NCBI GenBank assembly: GCA_903843285.1
Contig: CAIMPC010000010.1
Location: forward strand, 968-64,967
Direction of reading: 5' to 3'
Source of the DNA: Candidatus Omnitrophota bacterium
Lineage (GTDB): Bacteria > Omnitrophota > Gorgyraeia > 2-01-FULL-45-10
Length of the DNA: 64,000 nt
This document shows positions 9,851-57,020 of the stretch, piece by piece. Both the position numbers and the translations under genes were made by a program. How positions within the stretch are numbered: the stretch's first letter is position 1; every line of letters starts with the position of its first letter. Below the pieces are notes generated by a model, which made no database searches, was not told the origin of the DNA, and saw only the letters and a program-made list of their open reading frames with translations.

Positions 9851-10213
9851 ATGAGCGTAGAGAAAGCGAAAGCGTACTATACCGACAGAAGCGGTCCAGG
9901 AAAACTCAATTGCGGCCAGGCTGTGATAGCCGCATTCAAGGAAAAATTCTCCCTCAGCGATGATAGCGTTAATCTTTTTGCCGCATACGGCAGTGGCAGG
10001 GCTCCTGAGAACGTCTGCGGAACACTTTATGCCGCGCAGTATCTATTGAAGGGTAAAGATCAGGAGAAGCTCGCTCAGTGTGAGAAAATATTTATAGCTA
10101 AGGCCGGATCGACCAAGTGCAAAGAGATAAGGAAACTGAATAAGCTTTCGTGCGTAGGGTGCGTGGAGACGATAGCGGAATTTTTAGATAATATAGAGAC
10201 TAAAGTTTTATGA
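9851..10213 (+). CDS. C_GCAxxG_C_C family putative redox protein
   Basis: Motifs NCGQAVIAAF, CGTLYAA and CKEI match the C_GCAxxG_C_C family pattern. 120 aa. Confidence 0.6.
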   Translation: MSVEKAKAYYTDRSGPGKLNCGQAVIAAFKEKFSLSDDSVNLFAAYGSGRAPENVCGTLYAAQYLLKGKDQEKLAQCEKIFIAKAGSTKCKEIRKLNKLSCVGCVETIAEFLDNIETKVL

Positions 10214-10629
10214 TGAGCATGTTACTAATGAAGCTTCCGTACAATAATATTAAGCGATCTAAGGTAATAATTATTGCAATATTACTTAGCGCCTGGACGC
10301 CGTTCGGAATATTGCAGATTTTGCGCGCCGATACGACCAATAAGATCAGCGCTTCAATAGTTACGCACGATGAGGGCGTTAAGGGCAAGATCATTGCGGA
10401 TAAAGCTAAGATAGACGAGGAGCGGAATGCGATACTGGCCGCCGATAAGAGACTGCAAGAGGCAAAAAAGACTCATGATAAGGCAAAGATAGAGCAGGTG
10501 AGTAAGGAAGTGGAACAGGAGATTAAGACAAGGAAAGATACCATTAAAAATATCAAGGCGGATATAAGAAATAAGGAGAATGGCGCTGGATCATTTGGGC
10601 AGGGAAGTAAGCGACATCGCGTAAAATGA
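10210..10629 (+). CDS. hypothetical membrane-anchored coiled-coil protein (139 aa)
   Basis: N-terminal hydrophobic helix, then a Lys/Glu-rich helical segment. Overlaps neighbours by 4 nt, so likely translationally coupled. Confidence 0.4.
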   Translation: MMSMLLMKLPYNNIKRSKVIIIAILLSAWTPFGILQILRADTTNKISASIVTHDEGVKGKIIADKAKIDEERNAILAADKRLQEAKKTHDKAKIEQVSKEVEQEIKTRKDTIKNIKADIRNKENGAGSFGQGSKRHRVK

Positions 10630-27944: not shown

Positions 27945-30557
27945 ATGAAGAAATCGATATTTATGCCATTCATTAGACATGCGGTGCTTGTAGTAGCGTT
28001 AGTTTTATTGCCCTCGGCGGTATCCTGCCAAAACCTTTCATGGGAAGACCTGAGCAAGCAGTCGTGGGAATTAAACAAACAGGGTAACTTCTCCGGAGCC
28101 ATCAGCACGGCCAAAAAAGCGCTCGAAGCGGCTACGGAACAATTTGGCCCAAAACATGCAAATGTGGTGATATCCCTTAACTCCATAGCGGCCATGTACA
28201 AAACCCATGAGAAGTATAAGGAATCGGAAGCCTACTATAAGAAGGCGCTTGCTATGCGGACTCTCTCAATAAGCTGTCCCGTTATAAAACAGGATTACCT
28301 GGACATATACACGGCGATGAAAAACCTCTATTCCGTATACAAGATTCAAAATAAATTACCTCAGGCCGGAAAAGTATTGAGACGCGCGTTAACTATTGAA
28401 GAAAAAGTGACGGGGAAAGATTCTCCGGAAGTAGAGAGAGACATCAGAGACCTGATCTCCATATATGAGGCCCAGGACAAACCTCAGCGGACGGAGCCAT
28501 TATATAAGAGGATTATAGAGATCGAAGAGAAGCGCCATGGGCCAAACAGCGCTGAGGTGGCCAATACCATGAATAGCCTCGCCGCCGCATATCGGTCGAT
28601 GAAACGATATGATGAGGCCGAGCCGCTATTAAAGAAGATAATAACCCTGGCCGAAAGCACGCATGGCGCCCAGGATGGCACTTTACCGACATTTCTGAAT
28701 AATCTGGGTACCGTACACTTCTACCGGGGGAAATATCAGGAGGCCGAGGAGCTATTTAAGAGAGCGCTGGCTATGGATGAAAAGATGTTCGGGGTAAATA
28801 GTCCCGAGATTGTCACCGATCTTAATAATCTCGCGACACTGTATTCTTATGAAAAGAGATATCAGGAGGCCGAGGAGCGCTACCATAGGGTGCTGGATAT
28901 AAATGAAAAGTCATTCGGACCCGAAAGCGTTAATTCTATAAAGTATATGAATAATCTTGCGGCTATATTTGCATATCAGCGAAAGTATAATGATGCAGAG
29001 AGCCTTTACAACAGAGTGATAGCTATAAGCGAGAAAGCGTATGGGCCGGATCATCCGGCTATGGCATCCGCTCTTAATAATCTGGCGTTTCTATACCAAA
29101 AACAGGCCGATTATGCAAGAGCCGAACAGCTCTATTTACGCTCCGCGCTGATATGCGAGAAGGATCTGGATAAAAATTATTCTATAATGAAGACCGCTAT
29201 AAATAACCTGGTAGCCATATACAGGATTCAGGACAGGCAGGCCGAAACGGCACAGGCGCTAAAAAGATTGATAGATATGAGCGATAACGCAAAAAAAAAA
29301 GAAAACCCTGACTCGATCCCCGCACTAAAAGATCTTATAACGATATATACCACCCAGAATAATTTTAAGATGATGGAGGAAGTGTACCTCAGGCTGATCC
29401 TGGTGGAGGAGAATGTATTCGGCACCGATAGCGCGGAGCTGGCCGATACTATGAATAAGTTGGCCGGCATTTATAGATCCCAGCGAAAGTTATCGCAGGC
29501 CGAGCCGCTCTTAAAAAGAGTGGTTCAGATAGCGGAGAGCGTAGACGGCCTGTACAGCACAAGCCTTTCCAGCTACCTCAATAATTTAGGGGTCCTATAT
29601 TTTTATCAGGGAAAGTTTACAGAGGCCGAGCCGCTCCTAAGAAAAGCGCTTACCATAGACGAGAAAGCGCTGGGAAAGAATGATCCGGGGATAGTAGAAG
29701 ATCTGAATAATCTTGCCGTAGTCTATTCGTTCCTTAAGAAGTATAAGGAAGCAGAGATCCTTTATGGTCGTGTTATAGGGATATCTTCGAAGGTATCCGG
29801 CGAGGATAGCTTAGCGGCGATATCGGCGACCAACAAGCTGGCGTACGTCTACGAGTCGGAAGAAAAATATGAAGAGGCGGCAAAGCTTTACACCAAGGTT
29901 ATAGAGATATGCGCTAAGGATGAGGCCAAGAACTATCCTGAGCTCAGGATTTCGCTAAACAGCCTCGCTAATATTTACAGCGGTATGGGTAAGCATGAAG
30001 AGGCTGAGCCATACCTTAAGAGGGCGCTCGCTCTCGAGGAGAAGATTGCCGGTAAAGGCAGTATGGATTATGCCGAGACGCTGAACTATTTGGCCAGGAT
30101 CTACAGGGCCCAGGGGCGATATTCGGAGGCGGAGGCGGCATTAAAGCAAGTTATAGAAACCGGGGAAAAGATGATCGGTTCAGATAACCCGGTGATGAGG
30201 CCATATTTGGATAATCTGGCTACAGTATATTTTTATCAGAAAAGATATGAAGAAGCCCAGCCGCTTATGGAAAAGATATTGAGTATAGATGAAAAGATTG
30301 GTGGGAAGGAGAATCCTGAGCTGGTAAAAGATTTGAATAATCTGGCTACGTTATATTCAAAGTTAAATAGACTCGAGGATGCAGAGTTGTTATATTCCCG
30401 AGCCGCATACCTATGCCAAAACTTTAGCAGTGATCCTAAGGAACTCGCAAATATTCTCGAAAATATGGCAAACATGTACGAAATGGTAAATAATTCTGAA
30501 AGAGCCGAAAATTTACGTTTGCAAGCAGAATCAATTCGTAAACCAGCCAAGCCTTGA
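27945..30557 (+). CDS. tetratricopeptide-repeat protein (TPR_12 / kinesin-light-chain-type repeats), secreted or lipoprotein
   Basis: Signal peptide with possible lipobox (LLPSAVSC). About 17 tandem ~42-aa units of form NNLAxLYxxxGxYxEAEPLxKRALxIxEKxxG. Confidence 0.85.
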   Translation: MKKSIFMPFIRHAVLVVALVLLPSAVSCQNLSWEDLSKQSWELNKQGNFSGAISTAKKALEAATEQFGPKHANVVISLNSIAAMYKTHEKYKESEAYYKKALAMRTLSISCPVIKQDYLDIYTAMKNLYSVYKIQNKLPQAGKVLRRALTIEEKVTGKDSPEVERDIRDLISIYEAQDKPQRTEPLYKRIIEIEEKRHGPNSAEVANTMNSLAAAYRSMKRYDEAEPLLKKIITLAESTHGAQDGTLPTFLNNLGTVHFYRGKYQEAEELFKRALAMDEKMFGVNSPEIVTDLNNLATLYSYEKRYQEAEERYHRVLDINEKSFGPESVNSIKYMNNLAAIFAYQRKYNDAESLYNRVIAISEKAYGPDHPAMASALNNLAFLYQKQADYARAEQLYLRSALICEKDLDKNYSIMKTAINNLVAIYRIQDRQAETAQALKRLIDMSDNAKKKENPDSIPALKDLITIYTTQNNFKMMEEVYLRLILVEENVFGTDSAELADTMNKLAGIYRSQRKLSQAEPLLKRVVQIAESVDGLYSTSLSSYLNNLGVLYFYQGKFTEAEPLLRKALTIDEKALGKNDPGIVEDLNNLAVVYSFLKKYKEAEILYGRVIGISSKVSGEDSLAAISATNKLAYVYESEEKYEEAAKLYTKVIEICAKDEAKNYPELRISLNSLANIYSGMGKHEEAEPYLKRALALEEKIAGKGSMDYAETLNYLARIYRAQGRYSEAEAALKQVIETGEKMIGSDNPVMRPYLDNLATVYFYQKRYEEAQPLMEKILSIDEKIGGKENPELVKDLNNLATLYSKLNRLEDAELLYSRAAYLCQNFSSDPKELANILENMANMYEMVNNSERAENLRLQAESIRKPAKP

Positions 30558-51617: not shown

Positions 51618-51911
51618 ATGAAGAAGATAGCAGTGGTGTTAGCAATAGCGGTGCTCGTAGCATACGCGATGCCGGTGTTTGCGGATGACGCATCAGGCGC
51701 GAAAAAGGTGAAGGAAAAGTCATTGTTCCAGATTTTCAGTAACGAGATCAATAGCAGTAAGATGCCCACCAGATTCGCTGTGAAGCCTGTCGCAAAAGAT
51801 ACGACAGAAGCAGCCAAGTACATCAGCGATAAAAAGGTAGGAGTGTTCCAGGATACGGCTAAAGCAATAGATGAACAATCTGTAAAAGCGAAGAACGAGT
51901 CGGCTCGGTAA
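51618..51911 (+). CDS. hypothetical small secreted protein (97 aa)
   Basis: Signal peptide MKKIAVVLAIAVLVAYAMPVFA. GGGGG RBS. Upstream TTGCAA-17-TATACT promoter-like box at ~51563-51591. Confidence 0.5.
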   Translation: MKKIAVVLAIAVLVAYAMPVFADDASGAKKVKEKSLFQIFSNEINSSKMPTRFAVKPVAKDTTEAAKYISDKKVGVFQDTAKAIDEQSVKAKNESAR

Positions 51912-51934
51912 CGGTAATTTTAATAATTAATCTT

Positions 51935-51973
51935 ATAAGGGCTCTGCCTATAATATTTAGACAGGGCCCTTAT
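51935..51973 (+). other. strong hairpin (possible terminator lacking a U-tract)
   Basis: ATAAGGGCTCTG / CAGGGCCCTTAT, a 12-bp stem with one mismatch and a 15-nt loop. Lies 24 nt after the stop of the 51618 gene. No T-run follows. Confidence 0.35.
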
Positions 51974-52034
51974 CTATACGACTAAAGAGGGGACGTATTA
52001 GCTTATGAGGAGACCGTTGCGAAATACAACTTCC

Positions 52035-52111
52035 GTCATTCTGAGGGAGGCTATCTGCCGACCGAAGAATCTAAAAGCGAGATCCTTCGTCGCTTCGCTC
52101 CTCAGGATGAC
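52035..52111 (+). repeat. hairpin repeat element copy 1 (77 bp) with terminal inverted repeats GTCATTCTGAGG...CCTCAGGATGAC
   Basis: Its first 40 nt are 39/40 identical to 56159-56198, and both copies end in CAGGATGAC. The ends are mutual reverse complements. Confidence 0.7.
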
Positions 52112-52175
52112 AATGGTCGCTTCTATCGTCATATTTACGTTGATTAGCACTAATTATTATGGAGATATTCAGGCA

Positions 52176-52655
52176 ATGGAAAACACGGTAGTAGTATTAG
52201 ATACCACCCAAGGCGCCATAGAGCTAACCCTTATGCCGGATGTCGCGCCGAAGGCTTGTGAGAATTTCGTAAAGCTGGTAGATAAGGGTTATTACAATGG
52301 CATTATATTCCACCGCGTAATTCCCGAGTTCATGATACAAGGCGGGGATCCCACCGGAACGGGTAGGGGAGGATCGTCGGTCTGGGGAAAACCATTCGTC
52401 GATGAGGTGCGAAAAGACGTACAGTTTGAAAGAGCCGGCGTCCTGGCCATGGCTAACTCCGGGCCGAGCACGAACGGCAGTCAGTTCTTCATTACCACAG
52501 CCGAGACCTCGTGGTTAAATATGCGTCACACGATATTCGGACGCGTTACAGCAGGCTACGATGTGGTGCAGAAGATAGAGAATACTCCGACCGGTCCCGG
52601 GGATAAACCTTTAGCCGAGCAAAAGATAATAAAGGCGCACGTCAAGACGAAGTAG
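52176..52655 (+). CDS. ppiB: cyclophilin-type peptidyl-prolyl cis-trans isomerase
   Basis: FHRVIPEFMIQGGDP, SVWGKPF, LAMANSGPSTNGSQFFIT. Start taken at MENTVVV with GGAG 12 nt upstream. The ORF-track start at 52005 runs through the repeat element and was rejected. Confidence 0.85.
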   Translation: MENTVVVLDTTQGAIELTLMPDVAPKACENFVKLVDKGYYNGIIFHRVIPEFMIQGGDPTGTGRGGSSVWGKPFVDEVRKDVQFERAGVLAMANSGPSTNGSQFFITTAETSWLNMRHTIFGRVTAGYDVVQKIENTPTGPGDKPLAEQKIIKAHVKTK

Positions 52656-52660
52656 GATCA

Positions 52661-54727
52661 ATGGATATTAAGCTGTCTAAAGAAAAGGCCGCTATCTTAG
52701 ATACCATCTTGACCTGTATGCGCATTGCGGTAAAGAACAGCTCTCTATTTCCTCCCGGCCACCCATCCTTCGATTCCTCTATGAAGTCCTTCAAATCCGC
52801 AATTGACAAATGGCTTATTTCTGAAGAGAGATTTACCATAGGGGTATCTTCGGATAATATTCTGTTAAACGGCGAGTTTGTAAAAGAGGGTAGTGATCTC
52901 TATGGAGAGATAGCGAGTTATCTCCATCCGAGGGGAATAATCGCCATCTCGTTTTTAAGAAATATAGATATCGACGAGATTTCACAATTCTTCGCCTTCC
53001 TTAAGAATGATGTTGAAGTGCTCTCCAGAAGGGGTGGCGTGGCAAAGAATATTCCGGCCTCCCCCCACCTGATCATTAAGGAGATAGATTACAGCTCCAT
53101 TCTTACGAGCGCTAAATCAGACAGTGGATTAGATGAGAAGGGGATGTGGAGGGCGCTTACCGGTATAGATCAAGGCCTTAAGGGTGGTAGTCTTCCTGAA
53201 TCAAAAGTCGAATTCATAAAAGATTTCTTAAAGGATCCTAAGGCCTCCGCGCATGTTATCAATAAAATTTACAGGCAGGCTATCGCCGGGCTTAATGAGA
53301 GATCGTCTGCCGATGAGATTAAGGGTGTCCTGGCCCGGATAAACAGGTATTTTGAGGCGCATCCTAAGGATGGTCTGGAGGATGCAAAGAAAGGAATCGC
53401 CGGTATAATATCGAAGCTCGATCCTATGCTTGTGGCCGGCCTATTTAAAGAGTCCGGTAACAGTGAAGACACGGGTGAACTATCGGAGGAGCTTTTTAGG
53501 GGAATGGGCGATGAAGGCATAGCCGACTTCATAGTGTCGCTTATCCAGAGTGAAAATACGGTTAACGAAAATTTTATAAAATTGTTCAATAAATTATCGT
53601 CGAAGAAAGAAGCTCCGAGTGCCGTGGCCGGACTGGTGGCGGACAAGATGTTCGATAAGGGGCTTATCAATCCGGGCATGCTATTGGCTCTTCAATTATC
53701 GATTAAGGATCTCTTCGAAGATCATCCCGAAAATGATTTCATCTCGCAGATATATAAGATGACTGTGAGTGCACTGGTCGATGATGGGGTCTCCGCCGGC
53801 GAGCGCTCATCGACATATTCTCAGATGGCTAAAGAGTATGAGGCATTTATTCAGGATGAGAATTTAAAATGCGAAAGAATAAGGCTCCTGCTTAATATCT
53901 TATGGTACGAGAACGATCTGTCGGGATTTCAAAAGATTTGCGCGATGATTAAAGATTGTTTATATGAAATAATCGATATTAAACATACCCGTTACCTGCG
54001 TGAGATGTTCGAGCTATTTACCGAAAAGTTAAGACCCGAGCAGTTAAACGATAGTGCGATAGGCTCGGAAGTGAAGAAAATATTAGATGAGATAGGTGAT
54101 GCCAAGGTTATAGACAGATTAATTTCGTTTATTCCCAATGCGGAACATGACGCGATAAAGAACATAGGATTTATTCTTAGCAAAGCCGAAGATCGAGCTA
54201 TAGAGCCGCTATTGGACTTATTTTTTGCCCCGGAGGGAGTTGAATGCAAAGAGAAGATAGCGCAACTTTTATTCAGCTTAGGTGAAAAGGCAAGATCGGC
54301 ATTCACTGGTAGGGTCGGTAATATAGTGGCCGGTAAGCCGGTATCAATTATGGTGCAGGAGATGAAAGATATATTAAAGATGATGGATGCGCAGTCGGCT
54401 TGCGCTTTGAGTTCTGAGACGATTGATAAATTATTCAATAAGTTGGACAAAACTTTTGGCGGCAGGGCGCATATGCGTGACCTGATAAAATTATGCGGAG
54501 ATTTTAAGATCCCGGCGTCAATACCCCATCTCGGAAAGATGGTCGCAAAAAGACATTTCTTCAATACAAAAGCCGTCGATCGGATACGTCTCGAGGCTGT
54601 CATCAGCCTGGGCAGGATAGGAACTCCCGAGGCATTGGAATATGTGAAGAAGGCATCCGGCGACAGAAGTCGATCGGTAAGGGCGATGTGCAGTGTAGTA
54701 TTAAGATCGTTTCAAAAAGGTTTATAG
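52661..54727 (+). CDS. DUF3391-like N-terminal domain protein with C-terminal HEAT repeats
   Basis: N-terminus is paralogous to that of the downstream HD-GYP protein (FTIGVSSDNILLNGEF...IAISFL versus ITIGVIGNEIAFDKEP...KISFL). C-terminal PBS-lyase-type HEAT repeats (EAVISLGRIGTPEALEYVKKASGDRSRSVRAMCSVVL). Confidence 0.6.
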   Translation: MDIKLSKEKAAILDTILTCMRIAVKNSSLFPPGHPSFDSSMKSFKSAIDKWLISEERFTIGVSSDNILLNGEFVKEGSDLYGEIASYLHPRGIIAISFLRNIDIDEISQFFAFLKNDVEVLSRRGGVAKNIPASPHLIIKEIDYSSILTSAKSDSGLDEKGMWRALTGIDQGLKGGSLPESKVEFIKDFLKDPKASAHVINKIYRQAIAGLNERSSADEIKGVLARINRYFEAHPKDGLEDAKKGIAGIISKLDPMLVAGLFKESGNSEDTGELSEELFRGMGDEGIADFIVSLIQSENTVNENFIKLFNKLSSKKEAPSAVAGLVADKMFDKGLINPGMLLALQLSIKDLFEDHPENDFISQIYKMTVSALVDDGVSAGERSSTYSQMAKEYEAFIQDENLKCERIRLLLNILWYENDLSGFQKICAMIKDCLYEIIDIKHTRYLREMFELFTEKLRPEQLNDSAIGSEVKKILDEIGDAKVIDRLISFIPNAEHDAIKNIGFILSKAEDRAIEPLLDLFFAPEGVECKEKIAQLLFSLGEKARSAFTGRVGNIVAGKPVSIMVQEMKDILKMMDAQSACALSSETIDKLFNKLDKTFGGRAHMRDLIKLCGDFKIPASIPHLGKMVAKRHFFNTKAVDRIRLEAVISLGRIGTPEALEYVKKASGDRSRSVRAMCSVVLRSFQKGL

Positions 54728-56125
54728 ATGGAACGAGATGATGTAAGGACGATAGTCGGGGATTTCATAAAAGAGCTGGTAGGCGCTATACAGAAGAGAG
54801 GCTTGTATGGCGAGCGCCACGATCTGACTAAGGCCGCTATGGCTGAGCTTTATGTAAAATTACGGGAAGCATTGTCGCTTATGCCGGAGATAACTATAGG
54901 TGTAATAGGTAATGAGATAGCCTTCGATAAAGAACCGTTTTACGAGGATAGTAAAAATATTTCCGGCCTGATCGGACGTTTTCAGAAGATGAAGATTGAG
55001 AAGATCAGCTTCCTGAATGCCGTAGAGAAGAGCGAGCTCGCATCCTTCGTTGAAATAATTGCCGAGCCCGCCGATGGCATAACGAAATCCGTATCCTTAA
55101 CGGAGGTTTTCGGATCTAAAGGAATAGTCAATATAGTTATCGGGGTGATAGGCGAAGGGGATAAAACAGCGGAGGAGACGCACACAGAAAATATATACGA
55201 GGCGGTTAAGGACAATTTTCGCGATGGCATAGATTATTTAAAGAGAACAATGGATGACATCAGTAATAACCGGTCCATCGATATAAGGGCGGCGCGTTTC
55301 TTTGTGAATAAACTCGTAGGCAACCTGCTAAAGAATAAGAACCTGCTTTTAATCCTTACCACGCTTAAGAAGAGGGACGATTTAACGTTTGTACACTGCA
55401 TGAATGTTTCCATACTTACGCTGGCCCAGGCCGAGACGCTGGGCATAGATCAGTCGCTATTGCCGGACATAGGAGTGGCGGGGCTTCTGCATGATACCGG
55501 AAAGCTGGCCGTAGAGGCGAGTATATTAAAAAAGGGCGGGAAGCTCGATTCCGATGAGATCGAAAAGATGCATTCTCACTCTATTGACGGGGCAAAGATA
55601 TTGCTCGAGACCTCGGGGCTTTCTACAATGGCCGCAATATCTGCATTTGAGCACCATGTACGTTACGATATGCAGGGGTATCCTACCAAACTATTCGGCA
55701 AAAAAATTAACCTCGCAAGCATGATGATAGCGATAGCCGACGTATACGATGCGATCAGAAATAAGAGGCATTATCATGTGGCGCGCGCACCTGAAGAGGT
55801 GTATGATGAAATGATTAAACTCTCCGGCACCCATTTTCATCCGGGACTCCTGGAGATGTTCTTTAAGACCGTTGGCGTGTATCCTCCCGGGACATTAGTA
55901 GAGCTGGATACGAGTGAGACGGGCATAGTCATTAAAGAAAGTTTTGTAGATATTATAAGGCCGCAGGTGGAAATATTGTATAATAGGCAAGGAAGAAAAG
56001 AGCTCGCGCCTTATATCGTTAATCTATTGGAAAAGGGTACCGGAAGCGCATATAAGAGGACAATAATCAGATCTGTGGCAATCTCTGATGAGCATCAGAT
56101 TCCGGCGAACTATAATCCAAATTAA
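54728..56125 (+). CDS. HD-GYP domain c-di-GMP phosphodiesterase with DUF3391-like N-domain
   Basis: HD motif GLLHDTGKL. HD-GYP signature HHVRYDMQGYP. Starts 1 nt after the previous stop. Confidence 0.8.
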   Translation: MERDDVRTIVGDFIKELVGAIQKRGLYGERHDLTKAAMAELYVKLREALSLMPEITIGVIGNEIAFDKEPFYEDSKNISGLIGRFQKMKIEKISFLNAVEKSELASFVEIIAEPADGITKSVSLTEVFGSKGIVNIVIGVIGEGDKTAEETHTENIYEAVKDNFRDGIDYLKRTMDDISNNRSIDIRAARFFVNKLVGNLLKNKNLLLILTTLKKRDDLTFVHCMNVSILTLAQAETLGIDQSLLPDIGVAGLLHDTGKLAVEASILKKGGKLDSDEIEKMHSHSIDGAKILLETSGLSTMAAISAFEHHVRYDMQGYPTKLFGKKINLASMMIAIADVYDAIRNKRHYHVARAPEEVYDEMIKLSGTHFHPGLLEMFFKTVGVYPPGTLVELDTSETGIVIKESFVDIIRPQVEILYNRQGRKELAPYIVNLLEKGTGSAYKRTIIRSVAISDEHQIPANYNPN

Positions 56126-56158
56126 GTGTAATGGATTATCATAAGAAAGGACCAATTT

Positions 56159-56248
56159 GTCATTCTGAGGGAGGCTATCGGCCGACCGAAGAATCTAAGC
56201 ATTCAGATCCTTCACCCGCCACTAAAGCTTAGGCGGGTTCAGGATGAC
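56159..56248 (+). repeat. hairpin repeat element copy 2 (90 bp)
   Basis: Begins GTCATTCTGAGGGAGGCTATCGGCCGACCGAAGAATCTAA and ends TTCAGGATGAC. Contains an inner perfect 7-bp hairpin ACCCGCC...GGCGGGT. Confidence 0.7.
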
Positions 56249-56282
56249 GTAATTTGGGCGGTAGTGAAAATAATTTTAACTC

Positions 56283-57020
56283 ATGAAGGGGGTTATGAAA
56301 TTACTATTATCATTATGGATATGGGCCGCAGGCATATGCGTGACCATAGTTACATTTCTCGTTAGCCTGATTCTTTCGATAGCGCTCTGCAGGCATCCGG
56401 ATAAGGAGAAGATAGTACACGCCCAATGTTACTGGTGGTCGGATTGGCTAGTGGTCCTAAATCCTTTCTGGAAGATAAACGTGAAAGGGCTTGAGAATAT
56501 AGATAAATCCGAGACTTATGTAATGGTTGCCAATCATCAGAGTCTTGCCGATATAGTATTAATATATCAGATACGCACGTATTTTAAATGGGTAGCGAAG
56601 GAAGAGCTGTTAAAAGTACCGTTTATCGGCGGGCTTCTAAGAATTAATAACCACATAATGCTTGCCAGAGGAGATTTTGGAAGCATAAAGATTGCCTACC
56701 GTAAAGCCGCCGAATATCTGCGCTCAGGCATATCCATGATCTTCTTTCCCGAGGGGACACGAAGTGAAACGAACCAGATGGGTGAGTTTCAGAACGGGGC
56801 ATTCAAGCTTGCCATACGAGAGCGGAAGAGGGTTTTGCCGATATACATAGGCGGGTGCAGAGAGGCTATTCCAAAGGGCGGATTTATCTTCAATTCTAAT
56901 GTCGTCGGAAGGGTAGAGGTCCTGCCTCCTATAGATACGGCGACTTTAGATATATCAGAGTACGGTGCATTAAGGGACCGTGTACGTAGCGAGCTATTGA
57001 AGGCCGCCTCAGCCAAATAA
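56283..57020 (+). CDS. lysophospholipid acyltransferase (PlsC family), third copy in window
   Basis: ANHQSLADIVLIY (HX4D) and FPEGTRS. The internal ATG at 56295 has the better RBS (GAAGGGGG) and may be the true start. Confidence 0.75.
   Translation: MKGVMKLLLSLWIWAAGICVTIVTFLVSLILSIALCRHPDKEKIVHAQCYWWSDWLVVLNPFWKINVKGLENIDKSETYVMVANHQSLADIVLIYQIRTYFKWVAKEELLKVPFIGGLLRINNHIMLARGDFGSIKIAYRKAAEYLRSGISMIFFPEGTRSETNQMGEFQNGAFKLAIRERKRVLPIYIGGCREAIPKGGFIFNSNVVGRVEVLPPIDTATLDISEYGALRDRVRSELLKAASAK

Follow-up and report, generated by a model that had tools for sequence, protein, structure and literature searches.

Gene-less hairpin doublets in an Omnitrophota contig and their probable relationship to Ssn nuclease cassettes

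Two hairpin repeats between co-directional genes

The DNA considered here, referred to as the window, is a 64,000-nt stretch of a Candidatus Omnitrophota bacterium (GenBank assembly GCA_903843285.1, contig CAIMPC010000010.1, positions 968–64,967 of the forward strand), and it carries two short, hairpin-forming repeats that are the subject of this analysis. Copy 1 occupies window positions 52035–52111 (77 nt) and copy 2 positions 56159–56248 (90 nt). The first 40 nt of the two copies are identical at 39 of 40 positions. Both copies end in CAGGATGAC, the reverse complement of the start, which gives copy 1 a 12-nt terminal inverted repeat that includes one T.G position and copy 2 one of 10 nt (GTCATYCTGA); copy 2 also contains an inner hairpin, ACCCGCC/GGCGGGT. 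These features had been described in a first-pass annotation made from the sequence alone, and each of them was borne out. Furthermore, the pair constitutes the sole repeat family of such kind (family D3) within the 64 kb, and GTCATYCTGAGG occurs three times in the window against an expectation of 0.45.

Both copies are intergenic and lie between co-directional genes. Copy 1 is located 124 nt downstream of an open reading frame (ORF) for a 97-aa signal-peptide protein and 65 nt upstream of a cyclophilin ATG at 52176, whereas copy 2 begins 34 nt beyond the stop codon of an HD-GYP gene and lies 35 nt upstream of the ATG of a plsC-like acyltransferase gene. From copy 1 onwards, the Pfam content of the region is a cyclophilin, a HEAT-repeat protein and an HD-GYP protein, followed by the plsC-like acyltransferase, which agrees with the gene content first ascribed to the bracketed segment.

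It had also been proposed that copy 1 lengthens the called cyclophilin ORF. Correspondingly, an ORF starting at 52005 (52005–52655) reads through the whole of copy 1, and the database gene call for the same contig begins at 52113, directly after it. The true cyclophilin start is probably 52176, because GGAGA is found 8 nt upstream and the Pfam domain extends from residue 6. Repeats of this kind therefore mislead gene callers, here into the over-long cyclophilin starts at 52005 and 52113. The AGGAT of a copy 1 hairpin resembles a ribosome-binding site ahead of the database start.

Module structure and distribution

Each element consists of two hairpin modules in opposite orientation, with their GTC tags facing outward. 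The conserved unit is 5′-(C/T)GTC-ATYCT-GA-(variable stem-loop)-GA-AGRAT-C-3′, in which the tag is unpaired and the final C lies directly 3′ of the palindrome. In copy 1, the left module (52035–52071, forward strand), which is like the Ssn-related motifs (SRM) discussed below, reads GTC-ATTCT-GA-GG-GA-GGC-TATCT-GCC-GA-CC-GA-AGAAT-C; it is separated by a 9-nt junction, TAAAAGCGA (52072–52080), from the right module (52081–52111, reverse strand), which reads GTC-ATCCT-GA-G-GA-GCGAAGC-GA-C-GA-AGGAT-C. The left module of copy 2 (56159–56195, forward strand) belongs to the same subfamily as that of copy 1, with the apical loop TATCG in place of TATCT. A 10-nt junction, TAAGCATTCA (56196–56205), leads to the right module of copy 2 (56206–56248, reverse strand), GTC-ATCCT-GA-ACCCGCC-TAAGCTTTAGT-GGCGGGT-GA-AGGAT-C, and the inner hairpin of copy 2 is thus the variable stem-loop of this module. 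Across the subfamily, modules are 25–46 nt long, and the order forward then reverse was found 190 times as against 18 times for the converse. GCGAAGC, the commonest apical unit and the one in the right module of copy 1, is well known as a very stable DNA mini-hairpin, and a 5′-YGAR-3′ context favours sheared tandem G.A pairs.

Evidence for the module as the structural unit comes from covariation. Doublets were collected with a relaxed pattern, GTCATYCTGAG..GAAGRATC..GATYCTTC, which left two positions free per arm. Among 150 distinct doublets, the Y of GTCATYCT and the R of GAAGRATC within the same arm (Y6:R) formed 147 Watson–Crick and three T-G pairs in the left arm, and 149 Watson–Crick pairs and one T-G pair in the right arm. 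When both arms were pooled, 296 of 300 were Watson–Crick, four were T-G and none was C-A. When this Y was compared with the R of the other arm, four near-equal classes resulted (46/37/34/33), which is the random expectation. Similarly, compensatory stem triplets of at least seven kinds occurred in neighbouring modules (among them TGC/GCA 34, TCC/GGA 30, TTC/GAA 10, CGC/GCG 7 and CCC/GGG 7 times, compared with ~1–3 for mismatched controls). Across 437 distinct modules, 93% had a Watson–Crick pair immediately inside the GA/GA step (G-C 342, A-T 37, C-G 24, T-A 2).

The earlier description of each copy as a single hairpin closed by its terminal inverted repeats is not supported by these data, since covariation is confined to the same arm and pairing with the opposite arm is random. 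The folding of both copies that had been suggested as a check did confirm a strong structural potential: compared with shuffled sequences, RNA folding gave z-scores of -3.7 for copy 1 and -5.3 for copy 2, and DNA folding gave -2.4 and -4.1, respectively.

Doublets matching this pattern are widely dispersed. They were found at 53 loci in viral contigs, comprising 83 elements, and at at least 120 loci in contigs representing one genome per species. Besides viral contigs, the hosts span more than 20 bacterial phyla, which include Acidobacteriota, Omnitrophota, Chloroflexota, Patescibacteria, Bacteroidota, Bacillota, Pseudomonadota (all classes), Planctomycetota, Verrucomicrobiota, Nitrospirota, Cyanobacteriota, Actinomycetota, Synergistota, Campylobacterota and others. 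Long stop-free stretches contained 45% of the modules, compared with 88% of random positions, indicating that long ORFs are avoided. Where the first-pass annotation had allowed for there being neither further copies nor a conserved structure, both were found, in the form of copies in more than 20 phyla and of covarying modules. Tandem arrays of four to five doublets were observed at the ends of two viral contigs (L023, 8519–8969, with a period of ~87 nt; L042, 8924–9429, with spacings of 65–130 nt).

This distribution bears on the simplest account of the window, namely that its two copies are a local duplication scar, one derived from the other at this locus and of no wider meaning. The near-identity of their left modules (39 of 40 positions) and their separation by only 4.1 kb would fit such an origin. 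Against it, the variable parts of the two right modules are entirely different, and the subfamily-specific left module, GTCATYCTGAGGGAGGC-N3-9-GCCGACCGAAGRATC, recurs at 88 metagenome loci in unrelated contexts. Moreover, other contigs contain copies that match copy 1 at 94% identity along 69–83 nt, with the outer flank included. A local duplication thus has a next to negligible probability. A metagenome scan retrieved no other contig of the source organism, the repeat itself being the sole match.

In one group of metagenome contigs (L190, L200, L220, L230, L233, L244, L249, L254, L259, L264, L267 and L146), the doublet forms the core of a ~165-nt unit with inverted ends, GGGACTGTTGCGAAATGC ... 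GCATTTCGCAACAGTCCC. Apparent direct duplications of 5–7 bp accompany this outer unit in L220 (CAAATTT), L267 (ATTAC) and L254 (TCAGAA). Copy 1 of the window has the left outer half only (GAGACCGTTGCGAAATACAACTTCC, 52010–52034, forward strand), and no right partner is recognisable in the window. Furthermore, 28 of 155 doublets with non-redundant flanks (18%) are nested in a longer, locus-specific palindrome, compared with 2.3% of controls. The CGTC-1 dimers of Halothiobacillus are likewise nested in longer palindromes (Di Nocera et al. 2013, PMC3733652).

The outer unit and its duplications, together with terminal inverted repeats of 10–12 nt, short length and many dispersed copies, are features expected of a classical MITE (a miniature transposable element with inverted repeats), that is, an internally deleted insertion sequence of a DDE transposase with GTCATYCTGAG terminal inverted repeats, moved by cut-and-paste with target-site duplication. 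The ends of the doublet do not co-vary with each other, though; each co-varies with its own arm. No direct duplication is present at the doublets themselves; those noted above are part of the outer unit, just one half of which is found in the window. In addition, the full-length form, described below, carries a 97-aa GIY-YIG nuclease and no DDE transposase. Taken together, these points make a classical MITE extremely unlikely. Of the first-pass label of a mobile hairpin like a MITE or a repetitive extragenic palindrome (REP), what stands is a dispersed, multi-copy, cross-phylum family of palindromes; mobility is putative, and neither ends that act as a pair nor duplications at the doublets, as expected of a classical MITE, were found.

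GIY-YIG (Ssn) genes and related repeat systems

Clustering of the ORFs within 400 nt of elements revealed no common partner gene, only the relatedness of phage genomes. A GIY-YIG motif search of the 1.9 Mb of fetched loci returned five ORFs, and all five lay within 62 nt of a module. In L188, L256, L106, L274/L277 and L278, a GIY-YIG ORF is placed exactly between the two modules, in a cassette with the layout ...GAAGRATCTgaagATG ... ORF ... TAGATYCTTC...TCAGRATGAC, where the stop codon overlaps the start of the right module. Correspondingly, the left module is separated from the ATG of the small ORF by 5–6 nt in several metagenome loci. Three of the five motif-search loci (L188, L234 and L269) share flanks and L256 is orthologous to L188, so the number of independent cassette sites is ~3–4, mostly in Omnitrophota.

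The cassette ORFs encode single-domain proteins of 96–97 aa that match the Pfam GIY-YIG family PF01541 (E 1e-17 and 4e-18). Over 93 residues, the Omnitrophota protein shares 47% identity (E 7e-33) with the product of a 94-aa ORF of Neisseria gonorrhoeae, which was found by tblastn of a plasmid collection in which two chromosome-size N. gonorrhoeae records matched. The published expression for NTS, the target repeat of the Neisseria enzyme, identifies nine copies within 1.5 kb of that ORF (locus L272). Because of this identity to a homologue surrounded by nine NTS repeats, the protein between the modules is assigned by its sequence to the Ssn family of site-specific single-stranded DNA (ssDNA) nucleases. 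When the PDB was searched with the Omnitrophota protein, the sole match was a marginal one, a UPF0213 GIY-YIG protein.

In the window, the place of the ORF is taken by the short junctions, giving GAAGAATC-TAAAAGCGA-GATCCTTC in copy 1 (9 nt) and GAAGAATC-TAAGCATTCA-GATCCTTC in copy 2 (10 nt), and full-length relatives carry the Ssn ORF at the site of either junction. In some relatives the modules abut directly (GAAGGATCTAGATCCTTC). By this correspondence, the doublet stands to the Ssn cassette as a MITE does to its insertion sequence; the difference may have arisen through loss of the gene from a cassette or through its gain by a doublet.

Chenal et al. (2025, PMC11893778) described SsnA of Neisseria meningitidis as a 94-aa, single-domain GIY-YIG protein (CDD cd10448) that binds the NTS hairpin (CGTCATTCCCGCGMAVGCGGGAATCYRG; CGTCATTCCCGCG..GCGGGAATC) as ssDNA only and on one strand only, and that binds neither double-stranded DNA nor RNA. 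SsnA cleaves a few nucleotides upstream of NTS; the three bases before the palindrome are needed for cleavage, and the C after the palindrome is the most critical for binding. The same authors reported that Ssn homologues across bacteria are flanked by SRM, and put forward as a hypothesis that the NTS-ssnA-NTS layout, which resembles an insertion sequence, behaves as one (PMC11893778). This class of repeats had been described earlier under the name of CGTC-tagged REPs, which have stems that start with AT, occur mostly as dimers in opposite orientation, have no associated transposase and include the Neisseria dRS3 and Rickettsia RPE-4 and RPE-6 repeats (Di Nocera et al. 2013, PMC3733652).

The frame of the NTS repeat, (C/T)GTC, AT..., ...AT, C, recurs in the window modules. 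In each of the four, an unpaired tag (cGTC, tGTC, tGTC and cGTC) precedes the AT at the start of the stem, and the palindrome is immediately followed by a C (AGAAT-C or AGGAT-C), as it is in every family member collected. As in the SRM/NTS system, a (C/T)GTC tag lies 5′ of an AT-starting stem, the C after the stem is conserved, copies number in the hundreds and are mostly intergenic, and a single-domain GIY-YIG gene of ~94–97 aa is flanked on both sides. The differences are that the stem here consists of 5 bp, a tandem G.A step and a variable stem-loop, whereas NTS has 8–9 continuous pairs and a loop of 3–5 nt, and that the window copies have no gene between their modules. The likeness to CGTC-tagged REPs extends to the CGTC/TGTC tag, the complementary AT stem start, the opposite-orientation dimers, the lack of a transposase and the nesting of dimers in longer palindromes, seen there in one species and here in 18% of doublets. 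The four described CGTC families, in contrast, have stems of 8–9 bp and loops of 4–5 nt and were reported from five phyla, while the GTCATYCTGAG type has a longer, interrupted stem and is spread over more than 20 phyla and viral contigs.

On these grounds, the two window elements are very probably orphan, gene-less doublets of oppositely oriented SRM, or CGTC-tagged REP, hairpin modules that are related to Ssn cassettes. Membership of this family, the module structure with its covariation, the association with Ssn genes and the homology to the Neisseria protein are each directly supported. What is new is a subfamily member of an already described class, and nothing new in kind. A full-text literature search for the repeat sequence returned unrelated primers or nothing.

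Several observations weigh against this assignment. There is no Ssn or other GIY-YIG gene in the 64-kb window by tblastn, which leaves a cognate nuclease of this organism putative; Ssn homologues are common in Omnitrophota. The doublets themselves have neither a target-site duplication nor an empty site among the loci found. Tag orientation in the cassettes is away from the gene, and at the Neisseria gene the closest NTS copies face it. Energy models favour a long inter-arm hairpin for whole doublets, and of the four window modules, just two adopt the proposed single-module fold when DNA parameters are applied, so that the argument for the module fold is one from covariation. Finally, the published SRM expression, HGTCWYN(0-2)YYVSBRHN(0-5)WNVSBRGN(0-2)RNCYNB, matches none of the four window modules and none in L188, L256 or L106, as compared with nine sites in L272.

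The last of these points is explained by the stems, which here are longer and interrupted by G.A steps. The expression is a search string limited to short stems, and its failure marks a different subfamily rather than exclusion from the class. It follows that the very widespread GTCATYCTGAG-type SRM subfamily escapes the published expression, and surveys that use it would undercount repeats in Omnitrophota, Acidobacteriota, Chloroflexota, the Candidate Phyla Radiation and Bacteroidota.

REP doublets (REPINs) moved by the REP-associated tyrosine transposase RAYT, an IS200-like Y1 enzyme, offer a rival reading, in which the doublet would be the REPIN and each arm a REP. The architecture is alike, with opposed imperfect palindromes, an unpaired tag at one end and intergenic, multi-copy occurrence, and the CGTC-tagged repeats were themselves classed as REPs by Di Nocera et al. 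(2013, PMC3733652). In REPIN/RAYT systems (Bertels and Rainey 2011; Nunvar 2010), too, the doublet of inverted palindromes is the unit, it is non-autonomous with respect to a single-copy gene that those palindromes also border, and recognition of ssDNA hairpins is presumed. The tag, however, is GTAG there and GTC/CGTC here, and the enzyme is an HUH/Y1 transposase there and a GIY-YIG protein here. No transposase family recurs beside the modules, the GIY-YIG gene being the sole recurring partner, and a RAYT association of the CGTC repeats was sought by Di Nocera et al. (2013, PMC3733652) and not found. REPIN sequences are also lineage-specific, whereas the present module is near-constant across phyla. 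Mobilisation by a RAYT is therefore very unlikely. The IS200/IS605 elements and their PATE and MITE derivatives are similar in that recognition of their ends relies on subterminal ssDNA hairpins, in place of duplex inverted repeats, and in having short gene-less derivatives; they differ in that their ends are not inverted copies of each other and that their transposase is a Y1 HUH enzyme, and transposition of Ssn cassettes is, for its part, putative.

If the doublets are orphan relatives of Ssn cassettes, a mode of action may be proposed by analogy with the Neisseria SsnA/NTS pair. When the DNA becomes single-stranded, during replication or repair or as incoming DNA, the hairpin of a module would form on whichever strand carries GTCAT...ATC. 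It could then be bound by a cognate Ssn nuclease, whose gene would lie at another place in the genome, with an ssDNA nick following a few nucleotides 5′ of the GTC tag. As the tags face outward, the nick would fall just outside the doublet on either strand. The repeats might in this way spread as selfish, non-autonomous elements, or might mark their neighbourhood for ssDNA cleavage. Binding, cleavage and movement of this kind, as well as any influence on the neighbouring cyclophilin, HEAT, HD-GYP and plsC genes, are extrapolations from the characterised system.

A bolder proposal would see the gene-less doublets as genuinely mobile but non-autonomous elements, with the 97-aa GIY-YIG Ssn protein moving them in trans via recognition of ssDNA hairpins. 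They would then represent a GIY-YIG-driven counterpart of REPIN/RAYT, with a near-invariant module in most bacterial phyla and phages that tends to land in the apices of existing palindromes. The exact relation of gene to junction, the constancy across phyla and the nesting in palindromes make the observations compatible with this proposal, which, taken as a whole, is tentative and rather doubtful; no insertion event was observed. The correspondence between gene-carrying cassettes and gene-less doublets provides a concrete set of substrates for asking whether Ssn nucleases mobilise repeats. It also offers a new pair of Ssn and motif for the ssDNA-cutting applications proposed for this enzyme family.

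Two further Ssn loci were observed. The cassette of L274 (1–12424), with its Ssn ORF at 10001–10294, is found beside genes for type I restriction-modification, a SIR2-like protein, a D5-type primase-helicase, a helix-turn-helix protein and a large serine recombinase, and this region looks like an integrated mobile island. A Planktothrix agardhii plasmid (L273) encodes an Ssn homologue at 1507–1791 that is 62% identical to the Omnitrophota protein and is flanked by a gene for MmeI-type restriction-modification on one side and by drmA, the DISARM helicase gene, on the other; the expressions used detected no module in L273.

Mobility, the 4.1-kb segment and neighbouring features

Empty sites were sought in viral contigs by two scans with flank-junction patterns, and neither gave a match. 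In the source organism, the spacer between the HD-GYP and plsC-like genes is 170 nt in all assemblies, with no empty site there. Two syntenic phage contigs of 73–79% nucleotide identity provide the nearest comparison: L280 has SRM doublets at 1335–1431 and 2678–2768, and L283 has GTAG-tagged hairpins (TGTAGGGGCGGGCATTGCCCGTCC and GTAGGGGAGGCGTTTCGCCTCCC) in the corresponding intergenic spots, at ~1330–1400 and 2625–2670. The L283 spots represent a replacement and not a clean empty site, and SRM doublets and GTAG hairpins seem to occupy interchangeable slots.

This exchange of one hairpin for another in phage relatives would fit a generic hairpin role, and thereby a structured RNA (an intercistronic terminator, an mRNA stabiliser or a regulatory hairpin) common to the upstream regions of the cyclophilin and plsC-like genes. 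E. coli REP-type hairpins stabilise upstream mRNA, and RNA folding is favourable for both window copies, which separate co-directional genes. Other lines of evidence point away from RNA. There is no Rfam match in the window at gathering thresholds, and at E<=10 only chance-level hits elsewhere in 51800–56500; no T-run follows the hairpin, and a promoter and terminator scan showed no enrichment of terminator-like sites. Since the two modules of any doublet lie on opposite strands, both strands carry the motif, contrary to what a transcript function tied to one strand would predict, and the same sequence occurs beside unrelated genes in more than 20 phyla and phages. T-G pairs, which RNA could accommodate, are found in only 4 of 300 arms, and the characterised protein partner does not bind RNA (PMC11893778). 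The shared regulatory RNA considered in the first-pass annotation is accordingly an unlikely explanation, though an incidental, secondary effect of doublets on transcripts is possible.

The 4.1-kb segment bracketed by the copies had further been suggested as a unit or an insertion. In relatives, the HEAT and HD-GYP gene pair is the only part of the segment that is kept, in other contexts and with no repeats. The nearest HD-GYP homologues are at most 62% identical and have different flanks, which leaves synteny uninformative on a 4.1-kb insertion. The chance that two random points fall within 4.1 kb in 64 kb is P = 1-(1-4124/64000)^2 = 0.125, and because P is ~0.13 the proximity of the copies is compatible with chance. 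Neither the synteny of relatives nor this proximity gives evidence that the segment is a unit or is mobile. The window repeats are regarded as dispersed selfish or genome-maintenance DNA, and not as a regulator of the cyclophilin, HEAT and HD-GYP block.

The spacing of the copies reappears in a short-read assembly of the same organism, where contig L001 is exactly 4124 nt long, equal to the repeat spacing, so that the assembly breaks at both copies. This break was considered as a hint of further copies and rejected, as two copies suffice to cause it. Very short length is also common among the protein-database contigs that carry Ssn. Doublet repeats thus fragment metagenome assemblies.

Three other features of the window were recorded. 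The 97-aa ORF just 5′ of copy 1 (51618–51911) encodes an obvious signal peptide (MKKIAVVLAIAVLVAYAMPVFA) and falls in no Pfam family; its equal length led to its consideration as an Ssn protein, which was rejected, as it is an unrelated signal-peptide protein. A strong hairpin (AAGGGCTCTG...CAGGGCCCTT) is located 3′ of this ORF, at ~51925–51975. Finally, positions 28714–30265 contain a 126-nt periodic direct repeat (families D1 and D2) inside a coding region, which is unrelated to the hairpin doublets; its period is consistent with 42-residue protein repeats such as tetratricopeptide (TPR) repeats.

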